A stretch of DNA of 64,000 nt from Elsinoe ampelina. Its lineage: Eukaryota. The notes below the pieces were generated by a model. The model made no database searches. It saw only the letters and a list, made by a program, of their open reading frames with translations, and was not told where the DNA came from. Below, in pieces: positions 57,715 to 61,849 of this stretch. Where the stretch lies: assembly GCA_010093995.1 (NCBI GenBank), contig ML992505.1, positions 473,433 to 537,432 on the forward strand, read 5' to 3'. The translations under genes were made by a program, and so were the position numbers. Numbering within the stretch: the stretch's first letter is position 1; each line of letters opens with the position of its first letter.

Positions 57715-58644
57715 CTACACACCCACTATCCTTCCTCCAATTCTCATCCGCCAACCAAATCCCCCTCGTAACCTCGACGCCAGATCCGTCGTCCCAGCCT
57801 CCAGATCGGTTCCCGTCGCAGCCGCCTCCCTCTGTTCAGCCAGTTGCTGCCTGACGATCCTCGCAAACGACAAATCCGCCACCACTACCTGCCCCGAATT
57901 GAACGCATCCACAATCTGCGTATCCCCCCTCCTCGGCTCAACCCTCAACAACCTCCTCCTCTCCCCTTCCCCCTCATCCTCCTCCCCCCCTCTCACCCCC
58001 CGATTCAGCTCCCTCAACTCCACATCCCCCTCCTGATTCTCCCTCGCCAACTCCCCCCTCTCCTCAAACTCCACCGTCTGCGCCACCCCTCCCCCCTCCG
58101 TCCCCTCCTTGACCTTCTTCTTCGCCACCACCGCGCCCAGACACACCACCTGCAACACCAAAACCACCAAATCCATGCCTACCAGCCTGACCCTACTCGT
58201 CCCCCCTTTCTGCCCTATAAAATCCATCGCAAGTCCCCCATGGAGGTACCCCCTCGTGGCCTCCCCCCCCTCCGGCGTCGCAAACCAGGCATGCCAGAAA
58301 GCGCAGAGGATATTCGCGAGCAAAACGAGGATGACGGGGCGGTTCGGAGGGGAGGAGGGCGGGTCGGGCACGATGCAGGGTTTGGGTGTGAGGAAGGTGA
58401 ATTGGATCATGCAACGCAGGAGGAGTCGGAGGAAGGAGGTGTCCATGTAGTAGATTGCCGAGAGGTGGGCGTAGATGAGGATGTCGAGGGAGCGGATCAG
58501 GTCGGTCAGCAGGAGGAGGCGGCGGAGTTGGAAGAGGGTGCGTTTGTCGCGGGGTGGGGGGCGGGTGGGCGCGTTGGAGGTGGGTGGAGGGTCGTTTGGT
58601 TGGGGGGTTGGGGGAGGCGGAGGTGCGGGAGGGTCATTGTTCAT
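57715..58644 (-). CDS. DUF1746 membrane protein, Dsc4-like
   Basis: DLIRSLDILIYAHLSAIYYMDTS, FLTPKP, GEATRGYLHGGLAMDFIGQ. Confidence 0.7.
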   Translation of the reverse strand: MNNDPPAPPPPPTPQPNDPPPTSNAPTRPPPRDKRTLFQLRRLLLLTDLIRSLDILIYAHLSAIYYMDTSFLRLLLRCMIQFTFLTPKPCIVPDPPSSPPNRPVILVLLANILCAFWHAWFATPEGGEATRGYLHGGLAMDFIGQKGGTSRVRLVGMDLVVLVLQVVCLGAVVAKKKVKEGTEGGGVAQTVEFEERGELARENQEGDVELRELNRGVRGGEEDEGEGERRRLLRVEPRRGDTQIVDAFNSGQVVVADLSFARIVRQQLAEQREAAATGTDLEAGTTDLASRLRGGFGWRMRIGGRIVGV

Positions 58645-58833
58645 GGTCTGGGGGCATGAGAGGGTGTGAGTTGTGAGCGAAGCATGTGTGCTTGTTGGAC
58701 GTGTGGTTGGAGGTTGGAGTGTTTGTGCTGTATGCGGGCAAGATTGCTCATCTTTCGAGGTGAAGTCTGCGGAAGCTCGAGATACCTGCGTTGCTCGAGA
58801 TGTGGTGCGCCGTAGATGCCTAATTGAATCACG

Positions 58834-58852
58834 TCGCGTCACCCCACGCGAA
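58834..58852. promoter_or_regulatory. Two MCB/SCB-like ACGCG elements in the divergent Dsc4-like/RFC2 promoter
   Basis: tcgcgt (58834-58839) and acgcgaa (58846-58852), about 90 bp upstream of a replication gene. Short motifs, so weak evidence. Confidence 0.35.
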
Positions 58853-58935
58853 GCTCTGGAGCATTTTCTTGAGCTTGACCATCACCTTCTCTTCACCCGC
58901 CAAAACTACACATTCGCTCATTTTGCTCTCTCACA

Positions 58936-60142
58936 ATGGCCAACTTCTTCGACATCCGAGCTCGACAGGCTGCAGCCGCTGCCAATGCGGCGTCTGCGAA
59001 AGCCACAGCGTCCTCGAACACAAAGGAGGACACCACACGCCTACAGCCATGGGTTGAGAAATAGTACCCCTCCCCCGACTCCTATCTGATCTCTCCCTAA
59101 CAATCCCCTCAGCCGACCGAAAACCCTCTCCGAAGTCTCCTCCCAATCCCACACAACCGTCACCCTCGCTCGCGCCCTCCAATCCACCAACCTCCCCCAT
59201 ATGCTCTTCTACGGCCCCCCGGGCACCGGCAAAACCAGCACTATCCTCGCGCTCTGCCGGCAGCTCTTCGGGCCTCTCCTCCTCCCTTCACGGGTCCTCG
59301 AACTCAACGCCTCCGACGAGCGCGGCATCTCCATCGTGCGAGATAAGATCAAGAACTTCGCTCGCATGCAACTAAGCAACGTCCCGGCCGGTCCACAGGG
59401 CAAGGAGTATCTCGAGAAATACCCATGTCCGCCATTCAAGATCATCGTGCTGGACGAGGCGGACAGCATGACGCAGGACGCGCAGAGTGCGTTGCGCCGA
59501 ACGATGGAGACGTATGCGCGGGTCACGAGGTTTTGTTTGATTTGCAATTATGTGACGAGGATTATTGATCCGTTGGCGAGTAGGTGTAGTAAGTTCCGAT
59601 TCAAAATGCTGGCGGGAGGGGACGCGGAGGAGAGGGTCAGGGATGTGGCGAGGTTGGAAGGGGTGAGGGTGCAGGAGGGAGTGGTGGAGAGGATCGTGGA
59701 ATGTGCGGAGGGAGATTTGAGAAAGGCGATTACGTTTTTGCAGTCGGCAGCGAGATTGGTCGGGGCGCAGAGTAGAGATGGGGATATGGAGGTTGATGGT
59801 GAGGGGGAGGTGACGCTGGAGGCTGTGGAGGAGATTGCGGGTGTGGTGCCGCCGGGGTTGATTGATAGGTTGGTGAAGGCCATGCAGGGAGGCGGGAGGG
59901 GAGGTTTGTACGAGAAGGTGGCGGATGTGGTTGAGGAATTGGTGGCGGAGGGTTGGAGCGCGACGCAGCTGGTGGGACAGCTTTATGACAAGGTAGTCAT
60001 GAGCGAGGGAGTGGCGGATAAGCATAAGAATCGGATTGTTATGGCGTTCTCGGAGACGGACAAGAGGTTGGTGGATGGATCAGATGAGCACCTGACTATG
60101 CTCGACCTGGCATTACAGATTGCCGAAATTCTACGATCATAG
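58936..60142 (+). CDS. RFC2: Replication factor C small subunit 2
   Basis: QPWVEKY|RPK across intron 59064-59112; GPPGTGKT, ELNASDERGI, LDEADSMT, SRC, GDLRKAI. Confidence 0.93.
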
Positions 60143-60279
60143 CATGGCGACGAGGTCAGCACAGAGGACATGAAGCATTTCCAGCGCGGCGTCAAGGGCA
60201 GGGCACATTCACAGCATGAATACATAAGCATGACTCTCCATCAAAAGCATTTCTCATTTTTCTAATGCTATCATCCCCT

Positions 60280-60477
60280 TCACGAGATTGTACACTTGAT
60301 CGGCAACCCACAAGGCCCCTCCTTCTCCTTCTTCTCCTCCGCCGCCGCCGGTGCCGTCGCCCTCGACGCCCCAGCACCACCCGCCCCATTCTTCTGCCCC
60401 TCAGGCTTGACCTGATGCTCACCGTCCTTCTTCACCTCCTCCTTCGCAGCAGCAGCCCCCGGCTTACCGCCATCTAG
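60280..60477 (-). other. Putative stop-codon-readthrough extension ending in a CaaX box
   Basis: TGA CTA G followed by 65 in-frame sense codons, ending EKEGPCGLPIKCTIS-TGA. Confidence 0.75.
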
Positions 60478-61156
60478 TCACGCGAAACTAACCTTGTTAA
60501 CAGCCTCAAAGAACGCCTTGCCCTGGGCTTCCGCAACCTGGATCTCCTTCTCACTAGGCTGCCTGCTCCCATCCGCACCAGCAAACGTGCCAGCACCCCA
60601 AGCACTCCCACCCCTCACCTCGCTCAAATCCGCCAGCAGGGAGAACGTCGTCTTATACCCCAACGGCACGTAGATAATCCCATGATGCGCCAACGTGCTC
60701 ATGGCCGCGACGGCGGTGCTCTCCTGCCCTCCGCCCTGCGAGGCCGTGCTGACGAACAGTCCGGCGTACTTGCCCCAGTACGCGCCTTGCTGCCACTGCT
60801 GGCCCGTCTTGTCCCAGAACGTCTTCCACTGGGCGGGGAAGTTGCCGTAGCGGGTGGGGATGCCGAAGAGGAAGGCGTCGTATTGTTCGAGGGTGGCGGG
60901 GTCGTCGAGGGTGGGGATGTCGGTGGGTTTCGGGGGCGCGTGCATCATTTCGAGGACGTTTTGGGGGAGGGTTTCGGGGATTCTGGAGGGGGGGGAAAGG
61001 TCAGTGAGGCCCGGGAGGGAGGGGGTCGAGGGGGGGAACGTACTGGTAGATGTCGGCTGTGCCGCCGGCGGCTTCGATGCCTTTCTTCTCGGCCTCGGCG
61101 AGGGTCTTGATGTGTCCGTAGAGGGAGTAGTAGACGATGGCGATCTTGGGGGCCAT
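60478..61156 (-). CDS. Flavodoxin-like NAD(P)H:quinone oxidoreductase (WrbA/Pst2/Ycp4/Alt a 7 family)
   Basis: [15 protein letters not shown] at 61156, intron 60983-61043; [38 protein letters not shown]. Confidence 0.93.
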
Positions 61157-61849
61157 TTTGGATGTGTGGTAAGGGGGTTGTTGGATGAGAAGTGGTGTGG
61201 GTTGTGGAGGGAGGTGTTCAGAAAGTGGATGATGAGGAGGATAGTCAAGGAGCTCCCCTGGCTATTTGTACGAATGACAGCATAGCTCCCCAGTCCCGGC
61301 AATGAAGCATTTCGCAGCTCCGGCAACAGACAGTCCAAACTCAATCAGGCAAGGGTAGCGCTACCTGGCATGCAGCTGGCCAATTGGATGCGTTGATGCA
61401 TTTCTAATCGCTTACGAGCAGCTGAGAATCGCAAAATCCCAGAGATGGAGCTTTTCCGCGAACGCCGCAAAAATGGTAAGCTCCCCCCACACGATCAAGA
61501 TGTCATATTACCAAGACCGGACTAATGCAAGGCACGAGAACCAGACGTGGTCAGTCGCCGCAAATCATCGGTGCGATTTTGTTTGGGCCTGGTTGGCGCT
61601 GCGCTCTTCATTTCACCTCGAGATCGGGAATTGGCTGCCATCCACTCTTTGCGTGTAGATTGCTCGACTTGGTCACTGACTAGCAATAATGATGCAGTGA
61701 CGTCGTTGGCCGGGTAATCCCTGTCTCGTATATTGCATGATCGGTGGGGCTGAAGAGGGGGAGCTTGTTAGAGGAGCAGAAAGTGTCAATAAGTTAGACT
61801 ACGTCCATTTGAGCACTAATCGTCGTCTCCCCTTGACGCCTACGCTGTC

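Follow-up and report, generated by a model that had tools for sequence, protein, structure and literature searches.

Conserved UGA-CU stop context and a CaaX-tailed extension suggest readthrough-controlled membrane anchoring of a quinone reductase in Elsinoe ampelina and related fungal loci

Gene structure and identity of the encoded enzyme

A quinone reductase gene lies on the minus strand, at 61156-60280, of a 64,000-nucleotide stretch of Elsinoe ampelina DNA (GenBank assembly GCA_010093995.1, contig ML992505.1, positions 473,433 to 537,432; hereafter the window), and is considered here together with the frame that stays open past its UGA stop codon. As read from the sequence, the gene has two exons. 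Exon 1 (61044..61156) begins with the ATG at 61156-61154 and holds 37 codons plus 2 nucleotides (nt); intron 1 (60983..61043) is 61 nt long, with GT..AG ends and a CTGAC branch site; and exon 2 (60481..60982) carries the remainder of a 205-codon main open reading frame (ORF) with an FMN_red / flavodoxin fold, ending in ...AVNKVSFA. The TGA at 60480-60478 is followed by CTA (60477-60475) and G (60474), and the three together form a putative leaky stop signal, UGA-CUA-G (60474..60480, minus strand like all the features of this gene).

Downstream of this TGA, the frame continues for 65 sense codons (60477-60283), encoding LDGGKPGAAAAKEEVKKDGEHQVKPEGQKNGAGGAGASRATAPAAAEEKKEKEGPCGLPIKCTIS, and closes at a second, terminal stop, TGA-A (TGA at 60282-60280). 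The first 53 codons (60319..60477) would form an A/G/E/K-rich readthrough linker devoid of Met, Trp, Phe and Cys, and the last stretch (60283..60318) encodes a candidate lipidation box, GPCGLPIKCTIS, with an upstream Cys at 60312-60310 and a terminal CaaX box, CTIS, at 60294-60283. An initial annotation of the window had described the ORF end ...VNKVSFA-TGA-CTA-G, the 65 in-frame codons and the CTIS terminus with a second Cys six residues upstream; each was found where it had been placed, and the translation equals the earlier peptide letter for letter.

The product of the main ORF is 205 amino acids (aa) long and is 98% identical to an annotated 205-aa protein of Elsinoe batatas. Searched against Pfam, the 205-aa form of this closest species matches PF03358 (FMN_red) at 43.4 bits (cut-off 24) and PF00258 (Flavodoxin_1) at 33.1 bits (cut-off 25), and exon 2 of the window itself matches PF03358 at 34.6 bits. 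The closest solved relative is yeast Pst2 (5mp4, E = 8.8e-78, residues 3-201), followed by Escherichia coli WrbA (E = 1.4e-48). By these similarities the gene encodes a WrbA/Pst2-type flavin mononucleotide (FMN)-dependent NAD(P)H:quinone oxidoreductase, with FMN binding and activity predicted.

The predominant transcript retains the UGA and the extension

Logan contigs from four public sequencing runs (three studies) were aligned to positions 60100-61350. In each of the four runs, one contig omits exactly 60983-61043, joining 61044 to 60982 with a skip of 61 nt. Since intron 1 is precisely skipped in every run, these contigs derive from spliced RNA, and the RNA nature of the runs rests on this joint. 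The same contigs continue unbroken from 60982 over the TGA and into the extension, without joint, gap or differing letter in any of the four runs, reaching 60235 in three of them and 60351 in the fourth (X5). The intron 1 joint is the sole one listed for the whole aligned stretch. Thus, the predominant messenger RNA (mRNA) retains the UGA and the extension, and the TGA is neither an error nor a rare allele, a check that the initial annotation had proposed.

The break in the X5 contig falls at a short low-complexity segment, a GAG/AAG run at 60318-60350 within the extension that encodes EEKKEKE; this run also matches contigs of other, more abundant transcripts, with three mismatches. The contigs of the remaining runs (X1, X3 and X15) all end at 60235, a weak hint at the true 3′ end of the mRNA, which under a long-isoform reading would leave a short 3′ untranslated region (UTR) at 60235..60279.

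Stop codon context in related loci

To identify related loci, metagenome contigs were scanned with an alignment of 20 fungal members of the family, and the best 80 of 398 confirmed relatives were kept. At each locus, reading started where the match ended and went past the first stop as far as the next one. Fifty-two of the 80 loci (47 distinct peptides) carry an in-frame tail ending C-x-x-x-stop, and the first stop is TGA in all 52. Three loci run off the contig end, and the other 25 are complete without an in-frame tail; these include all 17 loci whose first stop is TAA or TAG, so that no in-frame tail was found behind TAA or TAG (0/17).

Context was counted over the 47 distinct in-frame-tail loci plus the window (48 sequences), and tail properties over 46 canonical tails. 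The first stop is TGA in 48/48 sequences, followed by C at +4 and T at +5 in 44/48. Position +6 is A in 30 and G in 18, the full TGACTAG occurs in 23/48, and positions +7 to +11 mostly read [G/C]A[T/A]GG, with G at +10 in 47/48. The second stop of the orthologous canonical tails is mixed (TGA 17, TAA 13, TAG 16), and CT does not follow it in any of 47 cases. Across the 77 complete loci, in-frame tails are present or absent at a ratio of 47:1 behind TGA-CT(A/G) and 5:24 behind other contexts (Fisher p = 5e-14, a value that is illustrative only, since the loci share ancestry). The recurrence of stop, context, frame and tail in these sequences is far more than chance would give. The orthologue comparison suggested in the initial annotation thus came out in its favour, with TGA in 48/48, CT in 44/48, and both the frame and the terminal CaaX box kept.

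The related loci on metagenome contigs of about 1 kb have uninterrupted coding regions, while matches at longer related loci (L058, L070 and L072) span introns; the ~1-kb contigs are presumably complementary DNA, and no poly(A) was seen at their ends. A FastTree phylogeny (167 columns; 30/94 forks unresolved; no yeast sequences contained) was used for rough placement beside named proteins only, not for the order of events. In this tree, the 43 distinct loci without intron signals across the stop, the window included, sit beside proteins of Cladosporium, Zymoseptoria, Alternaria and Parastagonospora, and also beside those of Teratosphaeria, Lachnellula, Fusarium and Colletotrichum.

The extension evolves as protein-coding sequence

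The orthologous extensions at the 47 loci are 44-100 codons long, and every one is open and in frame. Their linkers are rich in A, G, T, E, K, Q, P and S. The tail is the most constrained part: the GPCGLP motif, both Cys residues and a V or I at position a2 of the CaaX box are invariant in 46/46 canonical tails, while the codons vary freely, with all four Gly, all four Pro and six Leu codons in use. Counted from the C-terminus, Cys stands at -4 and V/I at -2 in 46/46 tails, the window ending in CTIS-TGA; Cys stands at -10 in 46/46 and Lys at -5 in 43/46. The residue X of the CaaX box is L in 21 tails, M in 9, S in 8, Q in 3, A in 3, V in 1 and I in 1. By the rules for prenylation, these residues imply farnesyl or geranylgeranyl. 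Two loci, L045 and L080, have variant tails of the form ...DKFCG(L/V)xC-a-a-X, in which the two Cys residues are four residues apart.

For insertions and deletions, internal gaps were counted in 27 pairwise comparisons, each made inside one of 11 groups of related loci. Gaps in multiples of three make up 49 of the 53 in the extension, compared to 22 of 100 in the 200 nt past the second stop, and the four non-triplet gaps in the extension form two compensating pairs. Sequence identity is also lower after the second stop than within the extension. The ratio of nonsynonymous to synonymous substitution rates (dN/dS, Nei-Gojobori) is 0.14-0.67 for the linker in 10 of 11 computable pairs (1.28 in the remaining one); over the last 13 codons, nine of the 10 computable pairs give 0-0.18 and one gives 0.51. 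The expectation of the initial annotation, dN/dS below 1 in the extension, therefore holds for the linker in 10 of the 11 pairs. Taken as sequence evidence, these patterns indicate that the extension evolves as coding sequence, with its frame tied to the conserved UGA-CU stop.

Independent initiation inside the extension was considered as a source of the conserved tail and rejected, as internal Met codons are absent from the window's extension and from all 47 orthologous extensions (0/47); extensions without Met make internal initiation unlikely.

Splicing and other routes to the tail

The strongest alternative is that a minor mRNA splices out the stop, so that the tail is reached without recoding. 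The window does contain the elements named for this route in the initial annotation: a donor-like GTTAGT following AAG (AAG/GTTAGT, 60492) and an in-frame CAG at 60414-60412, delimiting an 81-nt candidate intron that would keep the frame; a second conceivable donor, GC/GTGACT, lies at the stop itself. In addition, many database gene models get to the tail by skipping the stop region, and splicing of this kind is predicted at some related loci, which serve as a natural control. At six of them the tail is out of frame (five have TAA and one TGA as first stop). Each of these six loci has a canonical intron of 65-133 nt, whose GTGCGT donor overlaps ...GGT GCG TAA and is followed by a CTAAY branch site and an AG acceptor. 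The stop lies within this intron, and removal of the intron brings the tail back into frame. The short form at loci with a stop-containing intron ends ...AFGA-stop within the intron, and the enzyme and the GPCGLPxKCaaX tail are the same as elsewhere. One of the six, L025, groups with named Podospora, Achaetomium and Parathielavia sequences at an unresolved fork, and the other five fall nearby. Five further loci carry such an intron in frame.

An intron signal was sought throughout as a GTNNGT donor close to the stop together with CTRAY as branch site and AG as acceptor. This combination was absent across the stop in 43/48 distinct loci, the window included; behind the window's own donor there is no CTRAY with AG. 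The window's GTTAGT corresponds to its Val-Ser codons and is peculiar to it among the 48 sequences, most orthologues having GTCAAC at this place. Nor is a GT donor at the stop conserved, because G precedes the TGA in only 30/48. An intronic region need not stay in frame and free of stops, yet this region does so in the 43 distinct loci without intron signals, whereas at loci that have the intron and stop at TAA, the tail lies in another frame. That the frame is free where the region behind the stop is an intron, and rigidly kept where intron signals are missing, is as translation through the stop predicts. The only joint in the contigs of 4/4 runs is that of intron 1, so that the splice-route check turned up neither a joint over the stop nor a branch site with acceptor behind GTTAGT. 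Considering all this, we regard splicing as an improbable source of the tail at the window, if one that retains some weight.

The individual introns considered for the window were rejected. No joint was seen for the 81-nt intron. Mini-introns of 19 nt or 30 nt (GTTAGT..TAG and GTTAGT..AAG) are too short and likewise show no joint, and the 19-nt version would shift the frame into an early stop.

Two of the loci with an intron in frame, L031 (2174-2245) and L054 (first stop at 2191), have TGA-CTG as well as the complete signals of an in-frame intron (72 or 63 nt), and are possible intermediates between the readthrough and splicing arrangements.

A second route would be stage-specific adenosine-to-inosine (A-to-I) mRNA editing in sexual development, converting UGA to UGI, which is read as UGG. 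C-terminal extensions created by stop-loss editing are known from Fusarium and other Sordariomycetes (PMC13123824). The editing described there is biased to UAG, however, while the stop here is TGA in 48/48 and TAG never; it is described for Sordariomycetes, while most of the present loci group with other classes. Editing also leaves the conserved CT at +4/+5 unexplained, and no letter at the stop differs in the four runs. We consider this route very unlikely.

Still less credible is an untranslated extension, whether a frame left open by chance or the remains of a once continuous Ycp4-like ORF that a nonsense mutation interrupted and that is now decaying. GC-rich 3′UTRs may stay open by chance, and the public annotation of the closest species does stop at 205 aa. 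Against this stand the invariance of the tail at the protein level amid free synonymous change, the triplet indels, dN/dS below 1, the stronger conservation of the extension than of the sequence past the second stop, and the recurrence of the same stop in sequences that group with several fungal classes. The last possibility, an error of assembly or sequencing at the TGA or a nonsense allele peculiar to the strain, can practically be dismissed, as the contigs of four runs from three studies match the window with zero differing letters over the stop and related loci have the same TGA. Selenocysteine insertion at the UGA was also rejected, as fungi are reported to be without the machinery (PMC4207609).

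A proposed readthrough switch between soluble and membrane-anchored forms

We consider it probable that conserved, programmed UGA readthrough yields a prenylated, probably palmitoylated, membrane-anchored isoform beside the soluble enzyme. Experiments in Ustilago maydis and in human cells have defined UGA-CU as a leaky context, which A at +6 and G at +7 make leakier (PMC4207609, PMC4359377), in agreement with the initial annotation, which had recognized UGA-CUA(G) as a known readthrough context. According to the proposed mechanism, most ribosomes would terminate at the UGA at 60480-60478 and release the 205-aa soluble enzyme. Some would place a near-cognate amino acid at the leaky UGA-CUA-G and translate 65 more codons, giving a 271-aa isoform whose added 66 residues comprise a disordered linker followed by GPCGLPIKCTIS. 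The terminal CTIS would be prenylated, with X = S suggesting farnesyl, and the CaaX box then trimmed and methylated; the Cys six residues upstream would be palmitoylated in the manner of Ras2 and Ycp4. This would make the long isoform a membrane-anchored form of the enzyme.

Because WrbA/Pst2 enzymes are tetramers, the fraction of tetramers that is tethered could be much larger than the small fraction of subunits that is anchored: one anchored subunit could hold an entire tetramer, and readthrough of a few percent may already give a sizeable membrane-bound pool. Readthrough itself, its rate, the lipidation and the effect on tetramers are what we infer from the above observations.

Several points weigh against this interpretation. 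Lipidation is predicted from the motif alone. Fourteen of the 48 sequences carry CTG and not the better-studied CTA, and the counts overstate the number of independent observations because the loci are related by descent. L028 keeps an in-frame tail behind TGA-TCG (first stop at 1051), while its close relative L022 has TGA-CTG; conversely, L026 (first stop at 685) has TGA-CTA-GAT with a truncated extension of 15 codons and no tail in any frame. Five in-frame loci, in four groupings, have a full in-frame intron signal of 63 or 72 nt, and at these both routes may coexist. The RNA evidence consists of assembled contigs, and since rare variants are lost in assembly, a minor form produced by splicing or editing may have escaped notice. 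Finally, the 121 nt beyond the stop in the window fold no better than shuffles (z = -0.09), and without unusual RNA structure any stimulation of readthrough must come from the short context alone.

With less assurance, we favour the broader view that the UGA-CU stop and its tail constitute an ancient recoding switch present in several filamentous ascomycete classes, by which the gene sets the ratio of soluble to membrane-bound enzyme, anchored subunits pull whole tetramers to the membrane, and a Sordariales-like lineage has exchanged the recoding signal for an intron that contains the stop.

Comparison to known systems

Readthrough-derived peroxisomal isoforms (fungal Pgk1, Art1 and Rpe1; mammalian LDHBx and MDH1x) offer the closest precedent, as one gene likewise serves two locations through the same leaky UGA-CU(A)(G), with a targeting signal hidden past the stop (PMC4207609, PMC4359377). 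In these systems too, related species splice to the same extension, paralleling the loci here with an out-of-frame tail and an intron. In the case of LDHBx, the extended subunit takes unextended tetramer partners along by piggy-back import (PMC4359377), which is analogous to the tethering proposed here. In contrast to these cases, the hidden signal at the present loci is a Cys plus a CaaX box on a 44-100-residue linker, not a peroxisomal targeting signal type 1 (PTS1) tripeptide on a short tail, the predicted destination is a membrane surface, not the peroxisome matrix, and readthrough is deduced from sequence comparison.

Ycp4 of Candida albicans and Saccharomyces cerevisiae is likewise a flavodoxin-like quinone reductase with a long C-terminal CAAX extension, located at the plasma membrane (PMC4556627); in C. 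albicans the extension is ~90 aa long and ends in a CAAX box (PMC4556627). The substrates listed for the Ras palmitoyltransferase Erf2 include yeast Ycp4 along with Ras1/2 and Rho2/3 (PMC5364179). Both sources back the comparison with Ycp4 drawn in the initial annotation. In yeasts, however, the extension is described as belonging to the protein and the short paralogues (Pst1-3, Rfs1) are separate genes, whereas here one gene would provide both forms: Ycp4 has one uninterrupted ORF, while in the window, as at each of the 52 in-frame loci, a UGA lies between enzyme and extension. The likeness to Ycp4 is one of architecture, the closest solved structure being Pst2. As flavodoxin-like proteins at the plasma membrane counter lipid peroxidation, guard membranes and matter for Candida virulence (PMC4556627), a membrane-bound fraction of the present enzyme is, by analogy, likely to be physiologically relevant.

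The Sordariales-like loci with a stop-containing intron share the enzyme and the GPCGLPxKCaaX tail with the window, but most of them stop at TAA, with the tail in another frame, so that the long form would need splicing, not recoding. In the A-to-I stop-loss editing of FgDBF2 in Sordariomycetes, a fungal stop is likewise bypassed and a disordered C-terminal extension added; that type of editing concerns UAG, the sexual stage and destabilising tails (PMC13123824), in contrast to the UGA-CU here, which is always UGA and leads to a conserved lipidation box.

The tail itself follows a dual-signal pattern. Ras2 and H-Ras combine a terminal CaaX box having an aliphatic a2 with a nearby upstream Cys as a second membrane signal, and the same pattern is seen here; unlike in those proteins, the upstream Cys is six residues off in a fixed GPCGLPxKC frame and the cargo is a redox enzyme, not a GTPase. 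One database model from a lichen fungus, Lasallia (P0089), has seven Lys residues before FPDKCEIQ and no upstream Cys, and its Lys run resembles the alternative second signal of K-Ras.

Database annotation and novelty

Among the 120 best database hits, most end ...KV(N/S)FA at ~205 aa, and 18 longer models end ...GPCGLPxKCxxx. Compared to the loci L003 and L058, the long models P0068, P0025, P0118 and P0096 reach the tail by omitting the stop region; a Fusarium model leaves out ~8 codons and an Alternaria model ~30. From this, the predicted introns of the long models seem to have been placed so as to bypass the TGA; a skip of ~8 codons would be shorter than any intron seen here. Public models thus present systematic annotation problems, either stopping at 205 aa or skipping the stop region to get to the tail. 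A 281-aa metagenome protein, P0083, has W at both stop positions (...KVNFA-W-LDGSS..., i.e. ...NFA-W-LDG..., and ...CAVL-W-...). Its gene caller apparently translated both TGAs as Trp, and the sequence looks like the same architecture in an intron-free transcript.

To our knowledge, the stop-codon readthrough events with an established function in fungi are essentially those that reveal hidden peroxisomal signals. Human genes have been screened for prenylation signals downstream of the stop (PMC4359377), and a signal of this kind has been predicted in Arabidopsis (bioRxiv 10.1101/2021.11.09.467898). Within the full-text literature searched, readthrough was not linked in any paper to flavodoxin-like proteins, to Pst2/Ycp4 or to a fungal CaaX anchor, in line with the initial annotation, which knew of no earlier description of the arrangement. 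Its readthrough reading is supported by the present analysis; the making of the extended protein, its amount and its lipidation are what we infer. What would be new here is the class of hidden signal, programmed readthrough for dual localisation being already known. If true, a conserved readthrough event hiding a lipid anchor would widen the known roles of recoding, would be the first case of readthrough-controlled lipid anchoring and would rank among the most deeply conserved cellular readthrough events known in fungi. It would also explain how moulds with a single gene obtain the Pst2-like and Ycp4-like forms that yeasts encode separately.

Neighbouring genes

The reductase gene converges with a replication factor C small-subunit gene on the plus strand (59090-60142; Pfam Rep_fac_C, AAA and RFC lid), and fewer than 100 nt separate the stop of the latter (60140-60142) from position 60235, where the reductase mRNA contigs end. 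Further along, an open frame on the minus strand (57718-58881) carries the fungal DUF1746 domain (E = 3e-39).

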